Of a stretch of DNA of 64,000 nt, positions 35,866 through 45,383 are shown piece after piece. This stretch comes from Thermoanaerobaculia bacterium (GTDB lineage: Bacteria; Acidobacteriota; Thermoanaerobaculia; Multivoradales; UBA5704), in NCBI GenBank assembly GCA_038250865.1, contig JBBSBW010000025.1, positions 11,809 through 75,808 on the forward strand, read 5' to 3'. The translations under genes were made by a program, and so were the position numbers. Numbering within the stretch: position 1 is the stretch's first letter; every line of letters starts with the position of its first letter. The notes below the pieces were generated by a model, which was not told the origin of the DNA, searched no databases, and worked only from the letters and a program-made list of their open reading frames with translations.

Positions 35866-38319
35866 CTATGTTTCTGAACCGCTTTGAGGCAATCCCGGAA
35901 TGGCATCCCAGCGCACCGGCACCGCCCGGCGGCGGTAGCCCCAGAGGCCATCGAGGCGCTCGGTGCCGGTGGTTTTTTCGAGCCCCTCGGCGACCATGCG
36001 AAAGGCTTCGACCACCCCGGGGACGACCAGGATGTGGCCGTTGTCGTCGCGCGGCATCTGCCAGCGGAAATCTTGCAGTGACCCCAGCTCCAGCATCGCT
36101 TCGCGCAGCTCGACGTAGAGCGCTCCCAGCCGCGCGGTGAGCGCCGCGAGGCCGCAGGTGGCGAAGAACGAATAGGGCTCGATCCGATCGATCGCGGAGA
36201 GAAGCTCTGGTTCGCCCTGGCAGCGGAAGACCTGCTCGGAAAGATCTTCCCGGTCGGTGCGCGCGGTGGTCAAGATCGCTCCAGGGCGGACATCTACGAA
36301 GCCGCCGGTCGCGAGGTGAAAGTCGCGAAAGTCCGCGAGCGTTCCGCCGCTTCCCCGTGCGTGACTCTGCTCAATGTGTTCGGCGATCCGGTCCGTTCCG
36401 TCGAACAGGATTTCAAACGGCGCAACAAAGAATCCCGTGCGCACGAAAGTGACCCCGTCCCGTTCGAAGACGATCGGCGAGCCGAGCGAGGGGATCGCCC
36501 AGACTGCCTCCAGGGCGCGGCGGAAAATTCGGCTCTGCGCCTGGTTTTTCTTGGGAAACAAGCCGCCATGGCGCCCGGGGTTCAAGACCGCGAGATCCTC
36601 TTCCGTGTCCGCGCCGACGAGGATCTGCATCTCACGCGCGAGGTCGGGCAACGGCCAATGGGCGAGATCCTCGAAGGTGAGCGGCTTGGACCGTTCGAGC
36701 AGGAAGCGCTCCGGATCGAAGCGGTCGAGATCGACGTACGGGTCGATCGCGTCGATGTCCACCGTGCGCAACCGATGGAGCAAGATCAGCAACGACAGGG
36801 CGTGCAGCTCCCCCTGGTGCTTGGCCGAGCCGAGATCTTGGAGCGCCATCGGTTCGAGGCCCGAAACCTGCGCCGCGAGCAGCGGCGGCTGATTCAGCAG
36901 GTCGAACACCTGACGCGAGTTGTCGGTCTCGGTGTAATAGCAGACGTTGTTCTCGGAAGCGGGAAACCAGGGGGCGTTGCCGTCGTCGCCCAGCACCCCC
37001 ACCGAGGCGAGGACCAGGGCCAGCTCGGAGGCACTCGCCACCCGCATCGTCCGATAGAGCGCGTCGGCGTTGGCGACGCTGAAGAAGCCGTTTTCGCCGC
37101 TTCGGATCGAATAGGCCGGACGGAGCGGCTCGCCCGCTTCGAAGAGCGCGCGGCCGGCAGAGGGATTTTCGAGCGGGACGGTGAGCGGCGGCGCCACGCG
37201 CACCATGTGGCGCACGGGTTTGCCGTCCGAACCGATTCTTTGGGCCCCGGGGAAGATCTCCTCCGCGGCATCGTGGATCAGGTGCGACGGCCGGGCGTGG
37301 AGCGGAATCGGCTCGCGCAGGCGAACCTCGTCGATGCCGATCGCGGCGGCGGTGATCAGGATCTTCAAGCCGAGCTGGCCGTACTCGTGGGCCAGCTCCT
37401 CGGCGAAGCGCTGCTTGTCGACCAGGAACTCGTCCTTCGCACTGTGGGCGAAGCCGAGCCGGATGCTCCTCTTCTTGCCGCTTTCCACCGAGCTTTCGTC
37501 GTACATCCCGCCGACCGCCGTGGTGTGGGCGATCAACACCTCGTCGGCCAGGCCGCGGACCTCGGCGAGGTCGTCGCGGAAGGACCCGACGAACGCCTCC
37601 TGAAGCTCGTCCCCCGCGTCGGCAGACGCGTCGAGGTGGCTCACCACCTGCCGCAGGTGGTGCTGGTGGTAGGCGATCAGGCTCGGGATCGGGATGCCTA
37701 GGGTGACCGAACGGAAGCGCCCCATCGCTTGGCCCTCGAAATGCTTTTCGAGGTAGCCGCGGAGAAAGGTCGCCACCGGCCGCGCCGCGCCGATCGCTTC
37801 GAGCAGCGTCGCGATCGGTTTTTGGCCGCCGCCGGGCGCCAGCTTTTCGATGAACGAATGGACGAAGGCGCGGCGCTCGTCGATCGCCACTTCCTGGATC
37901 GCGCCGAGACCCGGCAACACGTTCAGCCGGAAACGCTCGAAGGCGACGAACACGCCGCTTGCGGTGAGATACCCGGATCCGACCTTCCTGGGATGCAACG
38001 CTTCGCCGTGGCGCGTCTCGACGTAGCGGAACAGGCGCCGGGTGAAGGCCCGGATGTCGTCCCGGCCCAGGCCGGTCGCGAGCAGGATCGGCACGTCGTC
38101 CGCTCCGGGGGTGGCGACCGTCATCATCTCTTCGTACATCGAGAGCATTTGAAGCAAAGCCGTACCGCCGACCGCCCCGGTACCGCCGATGATCGCGTGA
38201 AGATCCCGCCACCGCTCGCCCGAACGCGCAGCCTGGGCCAGGCGCGGGCCGAGCCGCTGCTTCTTATAGCTTCGAGTCATAGAGGGGGCAACGTACTTCT
38301 CGCAACGGCTGCGCGTCAA
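35866..38319 (-). CDS. Large (817 aa) uncharacterised cytoplasmic protein with N-terminal Rossmann-like GGTGAVGG motif, last gene of the ECF sigma operon
   Basis: LHAIIGGTGAVGGTALLQML... near the N-terminus, then >700 aa with no motif I can name. TTG/ATG start in a 4-nt overlap with the anti-sigma stop. Confidence 0.65.
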   Translation of the reverse strand: MTRSRCEKYVAPSMTRSYKKQRLGPRLAQAARSGERWRDLHAIIGGTGAVGGTALLQMLSMYEEMMTVATPGADDVPILLATGLGRDDIRAFTRRLFRYVETRHGEALHPRKVGSGYLTASGVFVAFERFRLNVLPGLGAIQEVAIDERRAFVHSFIEKLAPGGGQKPIATLLEAIGAARPVATFLRGYLEKHFEGQAMGRFRSVTLGIPIPSLIAYHQHHLRQVVSHLDASADAGDELQEAFVGSFRDDLAEVRGLADEVLIAHTTAVGGMYDESSVESGKKRSIRLGFAHSAKDEFLVDKQRFAEELAHEYGQLGLKILITAAAIGIDEVRLREPIPLHARPSHLIHDAAEEIFPGAQRIGSDGKPVRHMVRVAPPLTVPLENPSAGRALFEAGEPLRPAYSIRSGENGFFSVANADALYRTMRVASASELALVLASVGVLGDDGNAPWFPASENNVCYYTETDNSRQVFDLLNQPPLLAAQVSGLEPMALQDLGSAKHQGELHALSLLILLHRLRTVDIDAIDPYVDLDRFDPERFLLERSKPLTFEDLAHWPLPDLAREMQILVGADTEEDLAVLNPGRHGGLFPKKNQAQSRIFRRALEAVWAIPSLGSPIVFERDGVTFVRTGFFVAPFEILFDGTDRIAEHIEQSHARGSGGTLADFRDFHLATGGFVDVRPGAILTTARTDREDLSEQVFRCQGEPELLSAIDRIEPYSFFATCGLAALTARLGALYVELREAMLELGSLQDFRWQMPRDDNGHILVVPGVVEAFRMVAEGLEKTTGTERLDGLWGYRRRAVPVRWDAIPGLPQSGSET

Positions 38320-39113
38320 GGCGTCAGCCGAAACTTGAGCGGCGGAGAGCCCGCGAGCCGCTTCCCCGCGGCGTCCTTCGCCTCGACCGACCAGGCGTAG
38401 ACCACGGCGGTTTGCAGCTTAGCCGCGGCCTCCGCGGGGAGGGTGAGCGGCGAGGCCTTGGCCGTGCCGCTCCAGATCTCCTCACCGAGCGGATCGACGA
38501 TCCGCACCCGGTAGGTGGCGGCCCCCGCGACCGCTTCCCATTCGAGCGCGGAGGGCGCTTGGGGCTGCTCCCCTTCCGGGCCGCGCAGCAGGACGGTCGA
38601 GCCGCGGTAGGTCTCGGCTCCCTGCGGCGGAGGGGGAAGCGCCGGCAGGTCTCGCTGGCGCAACTCGATCGCCAAGCCGATTCCCAGCGCGAGCAACGCG
38701 GCCAGGGCGAGGCCCCATCCCGCAAAGGATCGGCCCGGCCGGCGCACCGGCAGGCTCTGCGGAACGGCGACCGGCTCGCTCCTCTGCGCCGTACGGCCGA
38801 CCGGGAACGGCACGACGTTCGAACGGACGGGCGGAGCCTGCTGGCCTTGAGCCTCTTCGATCCGCCCGACGACGAAGGCCAGGTCCTCGTCCGAGACGTC
38901 GCCGGCATCGAAGGGGAGATCCCACAGGCCGGCCAGATCGCGCTCCGCCGCGCAGGCCGGGCAGGACGCGGCATGGGCTTCGATCCGCTGCCGTTCCGCC
39001 GCCGGCAGCTTCACCCACTCGGCTTCGACGAACAGCTTGGGCGCCGGGCACCCTTCCTCGAACGCTCCGCGCAGGTGGTCGGCGAACGTTTCTTCCCGAG
39101 GGTCACGGCTCAT
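38316..39113 (-). CDS. Zinc-finger-type anti-sigma factor, single-pass membrane protein
   Basis: N-terminal ...IEAHAASCPACAAERDLAGLW (HxxxCxxC), TM segment GWGLALAALLALGIGLAI, periplasmic C-domain. ATGA overlap with the sigma gene. Confidence 0.7.
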   Translation of the reverse strand: MSRDPREETFADHLRGAFEEGCPAPKLFVEAEWVKLPAAERQRIEAHAASCPACAAERDLAGLWDLPFDAGDVSDEDLAFVVGRIEEAQGQQAPPVRSNVVPFPVGRTAQRSEPVAVPQSLPVRRPGRSFAGWGLALAALLALGIGLAIELRQRDLPALPPPPQGAETYRGSTVLLRGPEGEQPQAPSALEWEAVAGAATYRVRIVDPLGEEIWSGTAKASPLTLPAEAAAKLQTAVVYAWSVEAKDAAGKRLAGSPPLKFRLTP

Positions 39114-39859
39114 GACGCGCTCCTTCCGGCGTTGCCCGCCTCGCGGCGGGCGAAACCCCCTTTGAGCTTGCGCAGGGCGGCGACGATATAGGCCTTGGCA
39201 CCCGATTTATTGGTCAGGCCGAGCACGGCGCCGATCCGGGGGAGGGTCAAACCGTGGACGTAATGCAGGATCAGGACCCGCGACTCCAGCGGCTCGAGGT
39301 CGTTCGTCACCGCCTCGCGCAGCCGAGCGTGAATCTCAGCGGCCTCGAGGTCGTCCGAGATCGCGGGCAGCTCGTCCGCCACCTCGGGCGCGCCCTCCTC
39401 GTCGAGCGACTGGGTCTTCCGGCGCGACTGGTATTCGGCGCGGTTGAGCGCAACGCTGCGGGTCACCTGGTAGAGCCAGGTCGAAAAGCGGCTGTCGCCG
39501 CGGAACGAGTCGAGCCGCGAATGGATGCGCAGGAACACGTCCTGCGCGACGTCGGCGGCCTCTTCGCGATCCCCCGCGATGCGCAGGCACCAGGCGGCGA
39601 CTTTCGGGCGGTAGCGCCGGTAGAGTTCGCCGAAACAGGCGTCGGCCGAACCCGGCTCGCGCCGCGCCCGGGCGATCAGCTCCTCGTCGCTCGCTTGGCC
39701 GAAGCTCAAGGCCGAACTCCGCGACGGCTGGTCGGTTCGGTGGAAGGAAGGGGCATCGGCGCGATCGGAACGGTAGGAGCGGGATCGCCGCCGGGGACGA
39801 CCCGACGGAGCCTGAAGCCTACTCGAAGAACGCGGCGCGGGGGGAGAGAGGGCGAGCAT
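39110..39859 (-). CDS. ECF-family RNA polymerase sigma-70 factor
   Basis: Region 2 ADVAQDVFLRIHSRLDSFRGDSRFSTWLYQVTRSVALNRAEYQ and region 4 LESRVLILHYVHGLTLPRIGAVLGLTNKSGAKAYIVAALRKL. The N-terminal ~60 aa may be an overcall. Confidence 0.85.
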   Translation of the reverse strand: MLALSPPAPRSSSRLQAPSGRPRRRSRSYRSDRADAPSFHRTDQPSRSSALSFGQASDEELIARARREPGSADACFGELYRRYRPKVAAWCLRIAGDREEAADVAQDVFLRIHSRLDSFRGDSRFSTWLYQVTRSVALNRAEYQSRRKTQSLDEEGAPEVADELPAISDDLEAAEIHARLREAVTNDLEPLESRVLILHYVHGLTLPRIGAVLGLTNKSGAKAYIVAALRKLKGGFARREAGNAGRSAS

Positions 39860-39887
39860 ACGTCCTAAGACAGCCCGGCGGCCTCAG

Positions 39888-39913
39888 CGGAACAGGAATC
39901 CCCCAGGCCGTTC
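39888..39913 (-). promoter_or_regulatory. Candidate ECF-type promoter (GGAAC - 16 nt - GTTCC) upstream of the ECF sigma gene
   Basis: Minus strand reads GGAACggcctgggggattcctGTTCCg, 30-55 nt upstream of the start codon. Resembles the GGAAC...GTC/CGT autoregulated ECF promoter architecture. Confidence 0.3.
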
Positions 39914-39989
39914 CGGCGCCGACGGAATCGGAGGCGTGGTGGGCTCGGCCCTGTTTCGTCACCTTTTGATGCGGACTCCGCCCCGGCTT

Positions 39990-40282
39990 TCAGGGCTCGA
40001 CGCCCAGCAATTCTCGAAACGATCCGAACGGCATCTTGAACCGTCGTGTTTCAAGGCTCGCCTTGTCAGCGTCCGCATCTTCTATATTGATCAGCCCTCC
40101 GCGAATCGCACGAATGTAGAGATCGGCAGTACCGATGATGCGGCGCTCCCCAATCCGGTTGACCGCCTCGCGCCAAAACCCCCGCAGAAATCCAATCTCG
40201 CCACATGGATCAAATTGATGAGGACATTGGCATCGGCAACAACGATCCGATACGGCCGAACTGTCATAGAGCCTCGGCTCAA
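39990..40282 (-). pseudogene. PIN-like nuclease gene (DUF4411-like) with a +1 frameshift in a G5/T4 run; coupled to the ImmA/IrrE gene
   Basis: Frame A (40282..40091) starts in a TTGA overlap with the ImmA stop and gives MTVRPYRIVVADANVLINLIHVARLDFCGG (PIN-like N-terminus). Frame B (to 39990) continues ...FWREAVNRIGERRIIGTADLYIRAIRGGLINIEDADADKA... Joining at ccccc/aaaa (40171..40183) restores ...LDFCGGFWREAV, which matches the FDxCPxFW motif of DUF4411. Confidence 0.5.
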
Positions 40283-41511
40283 AGGTCGCCGAGACCCACG
40301 TCATCAATCAGGCTGGCAATTCGATTTCGGTCGAATCCAAGCATTGATGCCAATTCATTGAGTTTCCCGCGCGATATCTCTTCTCGCCGAAACGCTTCCA
40401 GCGCGAGCCCCAAGATGCGATGTTGGAAACCGTCGCGACCTTCGGCAGTATCGGACTCCGCGAGGCCCAGATGCTCCGCGATCTGTTTGCCTCTACCTGA
40501 GTCGTCGAGAGCTTTCAAGCGATCGAAATCGCCTCTGGAGAGCAGCCGAAGGTTGCGTAGGCGATAGAGCGCGGCAATGCGGCTGACGCCGAAATGGTGA
40601 GCGAGCTGAATGACGTCGTAGAGCTGGACCACCTGGCTTCCGGGCGCCGTACGTCCTTCGGCCTCAAGACTATCGGCCCCGTCAAAGACATCGGCGTAGG
40701 TGCGGCTCGGCATTCCTTTTCCCAGGCCGGCGATGAATTGTCGGACGCCGTCTTGGGGCATCAATAAGCTGGCTCCAAAGGCGTTCGCCCGCACCTCGAT
40801 GAGGTTGTCGCTCTCGGAAGATCGGCTCACGAGGCCAAAGCGGTCTCGATCTGCAAGAACATGCGCATACTCATGGGCCAGAGAGAACCGACGCCTGAGG
40901 AGGTGGTGGCTCCGGTTGGCAACGACAAAGAATCCCACTGCTCGGTCGTTCAGAGTGAGCCCCGAAACATCGGCCGGAAGATCAATGACGCCTGTACGAA
41001 GGCCCTGCGTCTCCAGTAGCTCCCCGATGTCCGGAAGAGCTGCATCGCCGAGTCCGAGTCGCCGTCGTTCCTCCCCGGCGAGCCTTTCGCCTTGCTGGAT
41101 CGCCCCCCAACGGTTGGCGGGAAGCGGCATCGCGTAAGTCACCGTCGCCGCTACGCCCCGATCGATGCCGAGCAGAAACTCGAGGTTAGTGATCTCTCGA
41201 CCGAGAGTCATACATTCGCGCAGGGCGTCAGCTACCCCGGGCTGCGCCAAAACATCCGGTTGTGCGCGGAAAAGAGCTGCCAGCGAATCTGCTTCGTCAA
41301 AGGACTCCGAGAAAAAGCCGCGAATATCGCGACCAAAAAGGTGCGCGAGCTTGTCGAGCTCAAGGCTTGAGACGGAGCGATTGCCGGCCTCAACTTGAAC
41401 GACGGTTGGGCGGGAAACCCCTAGCTGCTCCGCAACCTGATCTTGGGTCAGGCGACAGGCCTCCCTCGCGCTTCGAATCCGGCGTCCGAGCTCTTGTTGC
41501 GTCACCAGCAT
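40279..41511 (-). CDS. XRE-family HTH fused to ImmA/IrrE-type (COG2856) zinc metallopeptidase domain
   Basis: N-terminal LVTQQELGRRIRSAREACRLTQDQVAEQLGVSRPTVVQVEAG (HTH_XRE). Central HEXXH: RRRFSLAHEYAHVLAD and downstream E. C-terminal helical region. Confidence 0.8.
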   Translation of the reverse strand: MLVTQQELGRRIRSAREACRLTQDQVAEQLGVSRPTVVQVEAGNRSVSSLELDKLAHLFGRDIRGFFSESFDEADSLAALFRAQPDVLAQPGVADALRECMTLGREITNLEFLLGIDRGVAATVTYAMPLPANRWGAIQQGERLAGEERRRLGLGDAALPDIGELLETQGLRTGVIDLPADVSGLTLNDRAVGFFVVANRSHHLLRRRFSLAHEYAHVLADRDRFGLVSRSSESDNLIEVRANAFGASLLMPQDGVRQFIAGLGKGMPSRTYADVFDGADSLEAEGRTAPGSQVVQLYDVIQLAHHFGVSRIAALYRLRNLRLLSRGDFDRLKALDDSGRGKQIAEHLGLAESDTAEGRDGFQHRILGLALEAFRREEISRGKLNELASMLGFDRNRIASLIDDVGLGDL

Positions 41512-41981
41512 CCTCCTTCCCTACACCGTCAGGGTCCAAGCTACAACCAGAAGAGGCCCCCGATCCGCGACTGACGTTAGTATTTCTTACTCGCCCCGTC
41601 AATCTAAGGCTTGCGACCAGACGGAACTCAGGGCAAAAAAGGCTCCCTTTTTGCCCGGACCGAACGAGATGTCCACCTCCAATGCGGCAAGAACAGGATC
41701 CTGAAACTTTCTGAAGCGATCGGGTCCTGTTCTTGGGCCCAGGCCGCACTATCGCTATTGAGGATCCCGTCCGTCTTTACGATCGGCGCGTGCGCTTGTC
41801 GCCCACTTCCGATCCGCTTTTGCTTTTTTCCCGGAAACCTACCGTTTCCGGTGGGTCGTCTTGGAATCGAGTTCGCTGCCTCGATCCCGCCGCTCGTCCG
41901 GGTCTCGATTCCTCATCGGGAGGGTCGGTCCTTTTTGGGCGGCGCCCAGATTCAGCGAAAATTGTTTGGAGGATTGGTCGA

Positions 41982-42821
41982 ATGCGGAACGGAAGCATGA
42001 AGTTTGCCCTGGCCTTGTCTTGCGGTGTATTGACGCTCGCCTCCATCGCCGCGAACGCGGCAGGCAGGAACCCGATCGTCTACACCCCGGCTCGCGGGCA
42101 CGAATCGAAGGTCGTCAGGGCCGTGAACCTGACCTACCACGGCGGACCGGTCATCACCTCGGCCAAGGTGGTCTACATCTTCTGGGGCGCGGCCTTTTGC
42201 ACCGGGGGTAGCGATCACACCTACGCAACGACCCTCCAGGCCTACCGGAACCAGTTCGGCACGACCCCGGAGTACAACACCATCACCCAGTACTCGGGCA
42301 TTCAGCTCGCGAACCTCGGCACCGGCAGCCCCGACCTGTTCGATTGCACGAACCCGGTGGCCAAGGTGACCGACGCCAAGGTCCAAGCCAAGGTCAATTC
42401 CTACATCGCCTCGTTCGGCTTCAACGCCAGCACGATCTACGAAGTGGTCATCCCGAGCACCTCGTACTCTTCGAGCGGCGGCAGCTCCTCGTGCGGCGGC
42501 CCGCACCTCTCCTACTGTGCGTACCACAGCTGGATCGGCTCCGGCGCGAACGCCACGAAGTACTCCATTCAACCCTATCCGAGCTGCTCCGGCTGCCAGG
42601 TTGCGGGTTGGACCTCGGTCCAAAACCAGGAGCACTTCGTTTGCCACGAGACCCGCGAAGCGGTGACCGACCCGACCGGCCTCGGCTGGTTCGACTCCTC
42701 GGGCGCGGAAGCCGACGACAAGTGCGCCTGGACCCCCTCGCCTTTCATCGGCACCGGCGGCTACGGCTATCAGTACCAGTGGTCGAACGCGGCGAGCGCC
42801 TGCGTGAAGACCGTTCCCTGA
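41982..42821 (+). CDS. Secreted hypothetical protein (Cys-containing, Ser/Gly/Thr-rich)
   Basis: MRNGSMKFALALSCGVLTLASIAANAAG signal. GGAGGA RBS. 8 Cys. No motif assigned. Confidence 0.55.
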   Translation: MRNGSMKFALALSCGVLTLASIAANAAGRNPIVYTPARGHESKVVRAVNLTYHGGPVITSAKVVYIFWGAAFCTGGSDHTYATTLQAYRNQFGTTPEYNTITQYSGIQLANLGTGSPDLFDCTNPVAKVTDAKVQAKVNSYIASFGFNASTIYEVVIPSTSYSSSGGSSSCGGPHLSYCAYHSWIGSGANATKYSIQPYPSCSGCQVAGWTSVQNQEHFVCHETREAVTDPTGLGWFDSSGAEADDKCAWTPSPFIGTGGYGYQYQWSNAASACVKTVP

Positions 42822-42974: not shown

Positions 42975-43400
42975 ATGTCCAGAAGCGCCATGCTCTCGAT
43001 TCGAATGCCCGATCAGACCCGGGAAGCGCTGGAAGCGACGGCCGAGGCCCGCGGGGAAACCCGCTCCGCCCTGATGCAGCGCTACATTGAGGAGGGTCTC
43101 CGGATGGACCGACACCCCGGCATCGTGTTCCGTCCCGGACCGGCCGGACGACGCCCCGGTCTGGCCGGGGACCCCGACGTTTGGGAAGTCGTGAGGGTAG
43201 TCCGGAACGTTGAAGCGGAAGGCGACTCGGCGATCACCGAAGCGGCGAAATGGTTGGGGCTTTCGACCGCCCAAGTTCGCATTGCCGTCGATTACTACGC
43301 CGATTATCCGGACGAGATCAACAGGTGGGTCGCGAGGCTCGACGCGCAAGCGGTCGCGGCAGAGGAACAGTTCAGGCGGCGCCAGGAAATTCTTCGTTGA
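42975..43400 (+). CDS. Fused RHH + DUF433 antitoxin-like protein
   Basis: SIRMPDQTREALEATAEARGETRSALMQRYIEEGL (RHH), then HPGIVFRPGPAGRRPGLAGDPDVWEVVRVVRNVEAEGDSAITEAAKWLGLSTAQVRIAVDYYADYPDEI (DUF433). Confidence 0.7.
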   Translation: MSRSAMLSIRMPDQTREALEATAEARGETRSALMQRYIEEGLRMDRHPGIVFRPGPAGRRPGLAGDPDVWEVVRVVRNVEAEGDSAITEAAKWLGLSTAQVRIAVDYYADYPDEINRWVARLDAQAVAAEEQFRRRQEILR

Positions 43401-43768
43401 AGCTGCTGCTCGACGAGCACTACCCGCCGATCATCGCTCACGAGTTAAGAGATCGAGGGCACGATGCCGTATCGGTCCAAGAGGTGCCGGCGCTCCGTGG
43501 GTTGACCGATCCGGACCTTTTCGCCGAGGCACAACGTCGAGAAAGAGCGATCCTGACCGAAAACGTCGCGGACTACCTGGCCCTGGACGCCGAGTACCGC
43601 AGCCGGCGTTTGTCCCATTGGGGTCTGATCCTCACGAGCAACCGAACCTTTCCCAGGGGACTGGCCGCGACACTCGGCGCCTTGGTGAAGGCGCTCGATG
43701 AACTGCTGGCCCAGATGGCTCAGGACGACCGGGACAGCAAAATCGCTTGGTTGCAGCGATCGAAATAA
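43397..43768 (+). CDS. DUF5615 (Mut7-C/PIN-like) putative toxin
   Basis: TTG start in a TTGA overlap with the upstream stop. LKLLLDEHYPPIIAHELRDRGHDAVSVQEV...AILTENVADY matches the DUF5615 N-terminal motif (LLLDENLP...L...GHD). Confidence 0.7.
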   Translation: MKLLLDEHYPPIIAHELRDRGHDAVSVQEVPALRGLTDPDLFAEAQRRERAILTENVADYLALDAEYRSRRLSHWGLILTSNRTFPRGLAATLGALVKALDELLAQMAQDDRDSKIAWLQRSK

Positions 43769-43848: not shown

Positions 43849-44400
43849 TCAGGCCCGTTCGTTCGGCTTCGTCACGTCGGGGACGTCCTCGCCGAGGGCG
43901 CTGGCGAGGTCCATCTGGTGCTCCTGCTCCTGCTTCAGGATCTCGCGGAGGTGCTCGGAGAGGGCGTATTCGCCCAGCTGCTCCGCTTGGCGGACGCGCT
44001 CGCGGTAGTTACGGATCGTCTCGTTCTCGTTGGCGAGGTCGAAGCGCAGCATGTCGGTGGCCTTGTCCGAAGTCTTGACCGGCTTCGGCGTCACCGTCGG
44101 CATGCCGCCCAGGTAATCGATCTGCTTGGCGATCTCGATCGCATGGGCCAGCTCTTCCCCGGCATGGACTTCGAGTTCCTTGGCGATCGTCATGTAGGCG
44201 GCCCCTTTGAGGACCTGGGAATAGACGACATAGGCGATGATCGCCTGAAATTCGCGGGCGAGGTCTTCGTTCAGCAGCTCGACCATCCGCTGGCGGGTGA
44301 TCGGGGCTTCGGTGTTCTGGTCTGGCGCGGGGGTAGATTTCGCGGTTTTGGCGGGCTTGGCGGGCTTGGCGAGTTTGGCGGGCTTGTTCTTCGTGGGCAC
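43849..44400 (-). CDS. Ferritin-like (Dps/bacterioferritin-like four-helix-bundle) protein with Lys/Ala/Pro-rich N-terminal tail
   Basis: GTG start 7 nt after AGAGGAGGAGCC. Tail VPTKNKPAKLAKPAKPAKTAKSTPAP, then ELLNEDLAREFQAIIAYVVYSQVLKG...EVHAGEELAHAIEIAKQIDYLGG (ferritin-like di-iron ligand pattern E..H / E..H). Confidence 0.7.
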   Translation of the reverse strand: MPTKNKPAKLAKPAKPAKTAKSTPAPDQNTEAPITRQRMVELLNEDLAREFQAIIAYVVYSQVLKGAAYMTIAKELEVHAGEELAHAIEIAKQIDYLGGMPTVTPKPVKTSDKATDMLRFDLANENETIRNYRERVRQAEQLGEYALSEHLREILKQEQEHQMDLASALGEDVPDVTKPNERA

Positions 44401-44504
44401 GATGGCTCCTCCTCTAAGACAGAGCATAGCTGCAAGATCCGGTCCGGGCAGAGCCCCCCGGTCGGACACTCGCCCGCGCGGCGGGTGGATCCCCGAGGGC
44501 CGGA

Positions 44505-45383
44505 TTAGGCGCACTGCATCAGGCGCACATAGCCATCCTCGAGCCCAGGCTTTGCCGGCTTGGCATCTGGAAAGCTCGCGGGCCGCGGCCCGACCAGCCG
44601 GTATTGGATGCCGTCGGCGAGATGCAGCATCGAAACGATGGCCAGCCCCGGCTCCGGCTCTTCGAGGCGCTGGCTCGTTGCGGTCCAGACGTGACCTTCG
44701 GCGGCTTCGATCAGCTGCGCGGGACTGCCGCGAAAGAGGATTTTTCCGCGGGCGAGCACCGCGAGATCGCGACAAGTCTGGCCGATGTCTTCGACGATGT
44801 GGGTGGAAAGAATCACCGTCCGGTCCGCCGCCAGATGAACTAAAAGGTTGCGAAAGCGAATGCGCTCCTCCGGATCGAGGCCCGCCGTCGGCTCGTCGAC
44901 GATCAGTATCCGCGGATCGTTCACCAGGGCTTGGGCGATACCCACGCGGCGCTTCATGCCGCCCGAGAAACCTTTGATCTTCCGGTCCGCCGCAGGGCCA
45001 AGAGCCACCATGTCCAGAACCTCTGCGACGCGCCGGGCTCGCTCGCGCGGCTCGTCCAGACCTTTCAGGATCGCCATGTAATCGACGAACTGCGCGGCGG
45101 AAAGCTCAGGGTACATCCCGAGATCCTGCGGCAGGTACCCCAGGATCGATTTGACTCTTCGCTTTCCGCTCTCCGTCCGCAGGTCGTGCCCGGCGACGCG
45201 GAGAGTGCCGCCGCTCGGGTTCACGATCCCCGCGAGGATGCGCATCAGCGTGGTCTTCCCCGCGCCGTTCGGTCCCAGCAGACCGAACATTCCGGAGGGA
45301 ATCTGAAGGTCGATGCCCGACAGGGCGCGGGCGGCTTTCTTACCGCGGCCATAGGTCTTGGTGAGACCGATAATTTCGATCAC
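44505..45383 (-). CDS. ABC transporter ATP-binding protein (ABC-2 exporter type)
   Basis: GTG start. VIEIIGLTKTYG, Walker A GLLGPNGAGKTT, signature FSGGMKRR, Walker B LIVDEPTAGLD, H-loop LSTHIV. The ORF-track N-terminal extension is rejected. Confidence 0.85.
   Translation of the reverse strand: MIEIIGLTKTYGRGKKAARALSGIDLQIPSGMFGLLGPNGAGKTTLMRILAGIVNPSGGTLRVAGHDLRTESGKRRVKSILGYLPQDLGMYPELSAAQFVDYMAILKGLDEPRERARRVAEVLDMVALGPAADRKIKGFSGGMKRRVGIAQALVNDPRILIVDEPTAGLDPEERIRFRNLLVHLAADRTVILSTHIVEDIGQTCRDLAVLARGKILFRGSPAQLIEAAEGHVWTATSQRLEEPEPGLAIVSMLHLADGIQYRLVGPRPASFPDAKPAKPGLEDGYVRLMQCA

Follow-up and report, generated by a model that had tools for sequence, protein, structure and literature searches.

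The locus occupies the minus strand of the window (the whole 64,000-nt stretch of DNA that was analysed) and consists of an intact gene for a 410-aa protein, preceded by a promoter-like element and followed by two remnants of a toxin gene. Its features are as follows.

41574..41602, minus strand: TTGACG-17 nt-TAACGT, a promoter-like element ahead of the antitoxin gene (alignment of orthologous upstream regions)
40279..41511, minus strand: intact antitoxin/regulator gene, 410 aa, with an XRE HTH, an ImmA/IrrE M78 peptidase and a conserved C-terminal helical domain (ORF, Pfam and PADLOC)
41320..41478, minus strand: XRE-type helix-turn-helix, aa 12-64 of the 410-aa protein (Pfam HTH_3, HTH_31 and HTH_19)
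40558..40977, minus strand: Peptidase_M78 (ImmA/IrrE) domain, aa 179-318 of the 410-aa protein (Pfam PF06114)
40297..40428, minus strand: conserved C-terminal helical UPF0175-like segment, aa ~362-405, the proposed toxin-binding part (conserved block ...LGLALEAYRREEISRGKL.ELA.M... and PF03683 matches)
40184..40267, minus strand: 5' part of the PIN toxin gene left after the deletion, codons 1-28, MTVRPYRIVVADANVLINLIHVARLDFC (tblastn query: intact orthologue P0008, 89% identity)
40175..40186, minus strand: deletion junction CTGCGGGGGTTTT, including the G5T4 run (DNA alignments against L007, L008 and L014)
39990..40184, minus strand: 3' part of the PIN toxin gene left after the deletion, codons 109-172 and the stop codon, no longer in frame with the 5' part (tblastn with P0008, residues 109-172, 72% identity)

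The 410-aa protein had initially been described as an N-terminal XRE HTH joined to an ImmA/IrrE domain with an HEXXH motif, and Pfam searches bear this out. HTH_3 was matched at aa 12-64 with an E-value of 2e-12 and Peptidase_M78 (PF06114) at aa 179-318 with an E-value of 2.5e-13, above the family cut-off. The zinc motif of the M78 domain reads HEYAH (40861..40875), and H213, E214 and H217 are invariant among 44 homologues. In PADLOC, the protein matched 15 RmrA models (best E 3e-23), with further matches to capP (E 1.6e-15) and capH (E 1e-4), and the NCBIfam model 'spr1629 family repressor/antitoxin' gave an E-value of 8e-12, far below the family cut-off. Homologues number 2401 and are mostly 409-425 aa long; comparison of the gene with its orthologues gave a dN/dS of 0.07. 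The public gene call of the antitoxin (P0128) begins two codons later than the 410-aa ORF. AlphaFold2 modelled the protein poorly (pLDDT 61). In Foldseek searches with this low-confidence model, the HTH resembled C.BclI, C.AhdI, DdrO and SinR, and the M78 domain weakly resembled IrrE (3dti/3dte). Since nothing beyond the HTH and a weak resemblance to IrrE was recovered, the comparison is silent on the C-terminal domain.

Alignment of orthologous loci revealed the TTGACG-17 nt-TAACGT element as the sole conserved block in an otherwise diverged intergenic region, and a promoter function is likely for it. A consensus promoter scan upstream of the antitoxin gene returned no sigma-70 site and missed this block too.

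At the other end of the protein, the C-terminus appears to bear a weak resemblance to UPF0175, the usual COG2405 antitoxin. PF03683 (UPF0175) matched 20 of 25 orthologous antitoxin C-termini at E ≤ 0.1, with a best E-value of 7.8e-5 and all matches under the curated 27.9-bit cut-off; the window antitoxin was matched with an E-value of 0.03, also under the curated cut-off. No stand-alone UPF0175 gene is present at the locus, and a profile of the antitoxin C-terminus gave nothing convincing against PDB sequences. The window antitoxin has a C-terminus shorter by 5 codons. This was considered as a possible defect and rejected, given that orthologues with intact toxins vary widely in tail length.

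Next to the antitoxin gene, the initial annotation placed a PIN-like gene of DUF4411 type with a +1 frameshift in a homopolymer, either inactivated or phase-variable by slippage. Two ORF pieces in different frames do meet at a G5T4 run (40183..40175; C5/A4 on the plus strand). A 63-aa ORF at 40091..40282 is opened by a TTG (40282..40280) that overlaps the antitoxin TGA (40281..40279), and a second frame, 39990..40307, encodes ...FWREAVNRIGERRIIGTADLYIRAIRGG.... The overlap of antitoxin stop and TTG at 40282..40279 is thus present as described, but the TTG is not the start of the gene: the orthologous toxin start is the ATG at 40267..40265, and in the window the antitoxin stop falls 11 nt before it.

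Comparison with intact orthologues gave a different account of the run. With P0008 as the query, tblastn gave two separate matches, one of residues 1-28 (40267..40184) and one of residues 109-172 (40184..39993); no match to residues 29-108 was obtained between the two remnants. DNA alignments against the orthologous loci L007, L008 and L014 showed that, instead of a one-base shift, 241 nt are absent from the window exactly at the G5T4 run, which is the deletion junction itself. The missing sequence amounts to codons 29-108 plus one base; among a few G residues, the point of breakage cannot be placed exactly. Without residues 29-108, the remnant is unable to form the PIN fold. Of the four acidic residues that are invariant in the family, E45, E89 and D106 fall inside the deletion, and the window keeps D12 alone. 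Restoring the frame yields a product of ~92-97 aa that lacks 80 residues of the 172-aa protein. The FDxCPxFW signature previously read from it ("FCGGFWREAV") is a chimera, in which residue ~27 is joined to residue ~111 across the deletion. Neither the two ORF pieces nor the repaired 97-aa product gave any match, to PIN or DUF4411 or otherwise, in Pfam (E ≤ 1) or NCBIfam scans; for the repaired product, this is the outcome that had been named in advance as counting against the initial annotation. The DUF4411 identity likewise fails in the intact relatives, PF14367 being matched by none of 45 intact homologues at E ≤ 10. Phase variation is excluded because the deletion removes 80 codons and a functional protein cannot be regained by any ±1 change; what stands of the earlier reading is that the toxin gene is inactivated. 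Judged from its sequence, this gene is a dead pseudogene (39990..40267), destroyed by a 241-nt internal deletion with a frame shift. For the toxin remnant, dN/dS (0.12-0.25) does not exceed the values between intact copies, so that decay after the deletion is invisible and the deletion cannot be dated.

The nature of the lost protein can be read from its intact counterparts. In L007, from a Thermoanaerobaculia MAG, an antitoxin 89% identical to that of the window is followed, with an ATGA overlap, by an intact 172-aa toxin gene; the toxin gene is intact too in L008, from a Holophagales MAG, where the antitoxin is 85% identical. The suggested check for an intact orthologous ORF thus comes out positive, but with 172 and not 97 aa. 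Orthologues of the small gene are PIN-fold proteins of 165-180 aa with the database annotation DUF3368/COG2405. Nearly all of 452 toxin homologues are 164-209 aa long, and the family comprises 2169 representative clusters at E ≤ 1e-3. Each of 45 intact homologues has D12, E45, E89 and D106. The AlphaFold2 model of P0008 reached a pLDDT of 93.2, and its top Foldseek matches in the PDB were all PIN domains, namely 1y82, Utp24, Nob1, the Rrp44 PIN and VapC proteins (E 2e-4 to 1e-2; target-normalised TM up to 0.67); as modelled, P0008 has a PIN fold.

The COG2405/DUF3368 assignment derives from the precomputed PF11848.14 annotation, which is found on all 120 toxin homologues listed, and from the JGI name of the orthologous toxin, 'predicted nucleic acid-binding protein'. 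In loci L001-4 the precomputed PF11848 entry is an unmarked match with E ≤ 1e-5. An hmmscan with PF11848.13 (DUF3368) gave no match in the 45 intact homologues and one faint match (E 0.012) in a distant relative, a negative result attributed to the model version,.13 as against.14 in the precomputed data. Sub-threshold PIN matches were observed in 6 of the 45 by Pfam hmmscan, and an NCBIfam scan of the intact PIN homologues gave nothing. When a PIN-family profile was run against PDB sequences, only spurious eS25 matches were returned, with no PIN and no COG2405 entry 2mdt among them. By database annotation, the lost toxin is a COG2405/DUF3368-type PIN nuclease of ~172 aa.

The association of the two genes is conserved. 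An XRE-M78 gene lies directly upstream of the PIN gene in 71 of 72 PIN-anchored metagenome loci, and it is full-length in 39 of the 42 paired loci with enough sequence. In 41 of 70 loci the antitoxin stop overlaps the toxin ATG or GTG by 4 nt (ATGA/GTGA). Together with the domain matches, the RmrA match and the PIN-fold orthologue, this synteny upholds the initial proposal of an XRE and ImmA/IrrE (COG2856) fusion coupled to a PIN-like toxin gene in a module of TA or abortive-infection type. Among the relatives, no fewer than four further lesions that kill the toxin have arisen independently: a loss of 348 nt in L094, of 222 nt in L005 and of 135 nt in L001-4, where the same 124-aa allele occurs in four samples, and an in-frame TAA in L093.

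With high confidence, therefore, the locus is regarded as a degenerate two-gene module of TA or abortive-infection type, in which the XRE-M78 antitoxin is intact and the PIN toxin has been pseudogenised by the 241-nt deletion. Given that the toxin was lost to this deletion and not to a switchable one-base frameshift, the locus is an ordinary decayed module, and the antitoxin/regulator is now an orphan in this genome. TA modules are expected to decay in this order, with the toxin lost first and the antitoxin retained.

An alternative is that the organism has an intact toxin gene and that the gap reflects mis-assembly or a minority deletion allele. The sequence is metagenome-assembled, and deletion alleles occur side by side in related populations (L001-4 and L005), which makes mixtures plausible. 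Against this, the window and the independent Logan assembly built from SRR19962010 agree at 100% identity over 6150 nt, with a clean junction and no gap or mismatch. Moreover, the intact orthologues contain no long repeat through which 241 nt could have collapsed, possible microhomology being limited to a few bases, and comparable real lesions were found in independent samples of relatives, as for the 124-aa allele. An artefact of this kind is accordingly judged improbable.

It is less probable still that the remnants retain a function, with either the N-terminal peptide of 58-63 aa or a C-terminal fragment limited to DUF3368 serving as a small regulator or dominant-negative antitoxin partner. 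The pieces sit on the operon transcript, in-frame shortened ORFs of 55, 95 and 124 aa occur in relatives, and the dN/dS of the remnant is still low. This low value, however, equals those between intact copies and mostly records the history before the deletion. The C-terminal piece in the window is out of frame and without the orthologous start codon, relatives keep different parts so that no common shortened product is conserved, and no gene is called at the remnants in the Logan record.

Slippage in a DUF4411-type gene has the least claim of all and can practically be set aside: although DUF4411 is documented as an HTH-COG2856 fusion partner (PMC5499597), the frame-restored product lacks E45, E89, D106 and the fold core, a tract of 5 and 4 nt is short for a contingency locus and has the same length in the independent assembly, and relatives whose full length is ~97 aa and which bear the FCGGFW junction are not common or conserved.

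For the decayed module preferred here, the behavior of its intact counterparts can be outlined. Most likely, the HTH would autorepress the operon from the conserved promoter and the C-terminal UPF0175-like segment would keep the PIN toxin inactive. The trigger may be DNA damage or infection by a phage, by analogy with ImmA, IrrE and CapP; the M78 peptidase would then cut the antitoxin, either in cis or in trans, which would free the PIN RNase and lead to growth arrest. A more far-reaching proposal, which we put forward only tentatively and consider doubtful, is that in this acidobacterial subfamily a single polypeptide embodies the three-component logic, with XRE operator binding, an M78 trigger and a UPF0175-derived clamp that is self-cut on infection or damage; orphan XRE-M78 genes would then be kept for anti-addiction, and the recurrent toxin deletions would reflect selection against a costly PIN. 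If this is true, the orphan XRE-M78 gene would protect against incoming homologous modules.

The window locus by itself matters little; its annotation should read as a pseudogenised toxin with an orphan antitoxin, and not as a frameshifted or phase-variable gene. It belongs to a large, tightly syntenic and uncharacterised RosmerTA-like subfamily of about 2000 representative clusters, which pairs a PIN annotated as COG2405-type with an antitoxin bearing a UPF0175-like tail. The natural series of toxin-killing lesions (241, 348, 222 and 135 nt, and a stop codon), with the antitoxin kept, supplies ready-made negative controls.

The type of module is already known. 'Three-component' systems of an XRE-HTH/COG2856 protease with a PIN protein have been described (Makarova 2009; Matelska 2017) and are now grouped with RosmerTA. 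PIN and RelE toxins have been connected with COG2856-Xre fusions (PMC2701414), and COG2405 is among the fusion partners of HTH-COG2856, as in Geobacillus GYMC61_2169 (PMC5499597). The locus shares with these HTH/DUF955(COG2856)/PIN-like systems the HTH-COG2856 fusion upstream of a PIN-like gene. It differs in that the partner is not DUF4411, which is included among those systems, and in that it represents an acidobacterial (Thermoanaerobaculia/Holophagales-like) subfamily in which this copy has decayed.

RosmerTA and RipAB provide validated examples of ImmA-type antitoxins (PMC10440598, PMC12795458), PIN-like partners have been noted among RosmerTA-type modules (PMC10440598), and the precedents for toxicity, neutralisation and phage defence come from other members only (PMC10440598, PMC12795458, bioRxiv 10.1101/2022.05.11.491447). 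With RosmerTA (RmrT/RmrA) and S. pneumoniae RipAB (Spr1630/Spr1629), the locus has in common an antitoxin composed of an XRE HTH and an M78 Zn-peptidase and a two-gene operon with a variable toxin partner. Unlike in RosmerTA, the antitoxin gene comes first and carries an extra conserved UPF0175-like C-terminal segment, and the toxin is by annotation a COG2405-type PIN, whereas RmrT toxins are membrane-depolarising, DnaN-targeting or unknown. The adjacent, co-oriented intact toxin gene of RosmerTA is present in L007 and L008 and absent from the window, where the system is unable to function because the toxin is deleted.

In the pairing of a COG2405 (PF11848/DUF3368) toxin with UPF0175 (COG2886), the toxin corresponds, by annotation, to the ~170-aa PIN-fold orthologue with its conserved acidic residues, and the partner C-terminus appears weakly UPF0175-like here. 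By contrast with the small stand-alone UPF0175 protein, the antitoxin has 410 aa, joins XRE and M78 domains and ends in the UPF0175-like part. UPF0175 is reported to adjoin only COG2405, and COG2405 is also found with HTH-DUF955 fusions (PMC5499597). A UPF0175-like tail on an ImmA-type antitoxin would link both COG2405 partner types, and the sequence resemblance suggests that it is the toxin-binding part.

Finally, ImmR/ImmA, DdrO/IrrE and CapH/CapP share with this locus the XRE repressor and M78 protease domains and, probably, signal-induced cleavage of the repressor. In those systems the two are separate proteins that control an ICE, a DNA-damage regulon or CBASS, whereas the fused XRE-M78 protein described here would control or neutralise a PIN toxin.

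The 410-aa ORF with its HEYAH motif, the TGA/TTG overlap with a 63-aa ORF and the meeting of two frames at a G5T4 run were accurately described in the initial annotation, but the +1 frameshift that it placed there was not confirmed.

Features of the antitoxin gene and toxin remnant in the window (basis in brackets)
41628..41659, minus strand: 15-nt inverted repeat a short way upstream of the promoter-like block (sequence)
41602..41574, minus strand: promoter-like block TTGACG-17-TAACGT, 60-90 nt upstream of the antitoxin gene (orthologue alignment), with an AGTA-N5-TACT dyad inside it (sequence)
41511 to 40279, minus strand: 410-aa antitoxin ORF (ORF call), with an XRE-type helix-turn-helix, HTH_3, at aa 12-64 (Pfam E 2e-12, above cut-off) and an ImmA/IrrE Peptidase_M78 domain at aa 179-318 (Pfam E 2.5e-13, above cut-off)
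40861..40875, minus strand: zinc motif HEYAH of the 410-aa protein (sequence motif)
40091..40282, minus strand: 63-aa ORF opened by a TTG that overlaps the TGA of the 410-aa ORF (ORF call)
39990..40307, minus strand: second frame, reading ...FWREAVNRIGERRIIGTADLYIRAIRGG... (ORF call)
40183..40175, minus strand: G5T4 run, meeting point of the two frames (sequence)

DNA alignment revealed that 241 consecutive nucleotides of the related loci L007, L008 and L014 are missing from the window, exactly at the G5T4 run. Given that 241 nucleotides correspond to 80 codons plus one, the apparent +1 shift is a by-product of this deletion. With the intact orthologous toxin as the tblastn query, residues 1-28 were located at 40267..40184 and residues 109-172 at 40184..39993, and no match to residues 29-108 was found in the window. 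By orthology the toxin gene starts at the ATG of 40267..40265 rather than at the TTG. Across window positions 36279..42428, junction included, the sequence agrees at 100% identity with an independent assembly (Logan, SRR19962010), which argues against an assembler artefact; the Logan record contains no gene call in the remnant region. The dN/dS of the remnant (0.12-0.25) equals that between intact copies, and the deletion therefore cannot be dated. No second copy of the antitoxin or toxin gene was detected within the 64-kb window.

Phase variation through the homopolymer had also been proposed. Of the acidic residues D12, E45, E89 and D106, only D12 is kept in the remnant, the others having been deleted with most of the central sheet. 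With the frame restored, the product would have only about 92 aa and could not act as a nuclease, and phase variation is therefore excluded. The 97-aa product repaired according to the initial annotation matched no Pfam or NCBIfam family. The homologues retrieved with it were a few short proteins and a fragment (P0004) with additional sequence, ...GRGEAACLVLAARYGWTVASDEKRRFRREAV..., between the two halves.

A one-genome-per-species contig scan with the 410-aa protein identified two close orthologous loci, L007 from a Thermoanaerobaculia MAG (antitoxin 89% identical) and L008 from a Holophagales MAG (85%). In both, an intact gene lies directly 3' of the antitoxin gene (in L007 with an ATGA overlap); it encodes ~172 aa, not the 97 aa expected. 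At E ≤ 1e-3, 452 homologues of the intact orthologue were retrieved, nearly all of 164-209 aa, and an exhaustive profile search expanded the family to 2169 representative clusters. All 45 aligned members share D12, E45, E89 (within GRGE) and D106 (within SDEK). The AlphaFold2 model of the orthologue is confident (pLDDT 93.2), and PIN domains account for all of its best PDB matches: 1y82, Utp24, Nob1, the Rrp44 PIN, VapC proteins of archaea and mycobacteria, and HARP RNase P. The predicted PIN fold is thus supported directly by the model. The DUF4411 identity first suggested was never matched in Pfam scans of the ORF pieces, the repaired product or the intact homologues; the FCGGFWREAV sequence, compared with a DUF4411 signature in the initial annotation, is the deletion junction, joining residue ~27 (RLDFC) to residue ~111 (RFRREV).

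Precomputed annotation assigned PF11848.14 (DUF3368) to all 120 homologues among the matches listed (of 452), including P0006 and the intact orthologous PIN, P0008. By contrast, hmmscan with the PF11848.13 model did not detect DUF3368 in the PIN homologues, and PIN profiles gave sub-threshold matches only, in 6 of 45. DUF3368 calls in these proteins depend on the Pfam release, and the putative assignment of the lost toxin to COG2405/DUF3368 rests on the precomputed PF11848.14 annotation. The JGI name for the homologues is "predicted nucleic acid-binding protein", and models of the PADLOC candidate family PDC-S70 match the toxin family at E 3e-8.

The antitoxin gene is intact, retaining the HEXXH motif and every invariant residue, with a dN/dS of ~0.07 against orthologues. 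Its product has 2401 homologues, mostly of 409-425 aa, and is matched by 15 PADLOC models of the RosmerTA antitoxin RmrA (best E 3e-23), by the CapP model (E 1.6e-15) and weakly by the NCBIfam spr1629 repressor/antitoxin family. Relative to L007 the reading frame ends five codons sooner, but tail length varies among orthologues with intact toxins. Given that the TTGACG-17-TAACGT block is the only conserved stretch of an otherwise diverged intergenic region (L007, L014 and L008), the gene is probably still expressed; the block and its dyad are a possible operator for the XRE domain.

With the PIN family as anchor, 80 metagenome loci were fetched. An XRE-M78 gene lies directly upstream on the same strand in 71 of the 72 loci with >150 nt upstream, shares a 4-nt overlap with the PIN gene in 41 of 70 loci, and is full-length in 39 of the 42 loci that extend far enough. 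The other three comprise a frameshifted copy (L064), one disrupted by an IS (L077) and one on a contig that is rearranged or chimeric (L084). In L064 (258..1428) the gene is split between two frames (residues 1-142 and 162-409) beside an apparently intact PIN gene, which could reflect an error of sequencing or a case in which the lesion struck the antitoxin first. L084 (587..2413) carries an intact 169-aa PIN gene, in front of which no more than the final ~16 codons of XRE-M78 remain, with a dnaB-like helicase gene adjoining on the other strand; either a rearrangement has orphaned the toxin here or the contig is chimeric.

UPF0175 proteins are the usual stand-alone antitoxins for COG2405 toxins. 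The last ~50 antitoxin residues (...FRHRFLGLALEAYRREEISRGKL.ELA.M....L..L..D.GL...) are among the most conserved parts of the protein, and 20 of 25 orthologous C-termini matched UPF0175 at E ≤ 0.1 (best 7.8e-5; window protein 0.03), all below the curated cut-off. The mechanistic steps of the intact system we can only infer: in the simplest reading the UPF0175-like segment would bind the toxin, the HTH would act in autorepression and the M78 domain would be a signal-responsive protease, analogous to the ImmA/ImmR, IrrE/DdrO and CapP/CapH systems. For the full-length antitoxin AlphaFold2 gave a poor, uninformative model (pLDDT 61). In L077 (535..2980) most of the XRE-M78 gene has given way to an IS, whose 583-aa transposase is encoded on the opposite strand; what is left is a 70-aa ORF that covers just the UPF0175-like C-terminus (~55-70 aa) and has a GTGA overlap with a PIN gene intact up to the contig end. 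This single case fits a toxin-binding C-terminus, and the ORF is a candidate natural "minimal antitoxin".

Toxin lesions recur in relatives.

Toxin lesions in related loci
L094: in-frame 348-nt deletion at GGAT microhomology, 55-aa product
L005: in-frame 222-nt deletion, 95 aa
L001-4: in-frame 135-nt deletion between CC.TCGAG repeats, 124 aa, four samples
L093: 3-nt insertion creating TAA within GRGE

The antitoxin gene is retained in each, wherever the contig reaches far enough; loss of the toxin first is the expected order of decay of a TA module. The 222- and 135-nt deletions are adjacent and non-overlapping (L001-L005 against L020, 2483..3008), and the sample contigs belong by name to one JGI series (Ga03957xx-Ga03958xx). 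The toxin-dead alleles suggest standing variation within one population. In another metagenome, a 66-aa PIN C-terminal remnant (P0003) lies near a ferritin gene, as does the remnant in the window.

Neighbouring features in the window
35866..38319: 817-aa protein without Pfam match, after the sigma/anti-sigma genes
38316..39859, minus strand: ECF-type sigma factor (Sigma70_r2/r4) and zf-HC2 anti-sigma factor, directly 3' of the toxin remnant
42975..43768, plus strand: second PIN-like TA pair, 1.5 kb away (Pfam)
43849..44775, minus strand: ferritin-like (Dps/ferritin) domain ORF (E 3e-24)

The second pair looks intact: an RHH_1 domain (E 1e-5) lies at the N-terminus of a 141-aa protein, whose gene is followed and overlapped by one for a DUF5615/PIN_10 protein (E 2e-14). 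Two or more TA modules are therefore present in the region. The flanks of the XRE-M78/PIN module are unlike those in L007 and L008, placing it in a variable context. The longest ferritin-like ORF has a ~160-aa low-complexity Arg/Pro/Ala-rich N-terminal extension; its true start is probably much further downstream.

As modest by-products, the analysis yields a UPF0175-like C-terminal segment in this RmrA-like subfamily and a natural deletion series. The XRE-M78 plus PIN architecture is already described: COG2856-Xre fusions were linked to PIN and RelE toxins and a three-component TA system was proposed (Makarova et al. 2009, PMC2701414), HTH-DUF955 fusions were reported to have COG2405 as one of their PIN-like partners, and UPF0175 antitoxins were found next to COG2405 only (Matelska et al. 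2017, PMC5499597), and ImmA-type antitoxins have been validated in RosmerTA and pneumococcal RipAB (PMC10440598, PMC12795458, bioRxiv 10.1101/2022.05.11.491447). The class of module was correctly recognized at the outset, although toxin family, lesion type and phase variation were not, and the feature in the window is a decayed member of this known module type.
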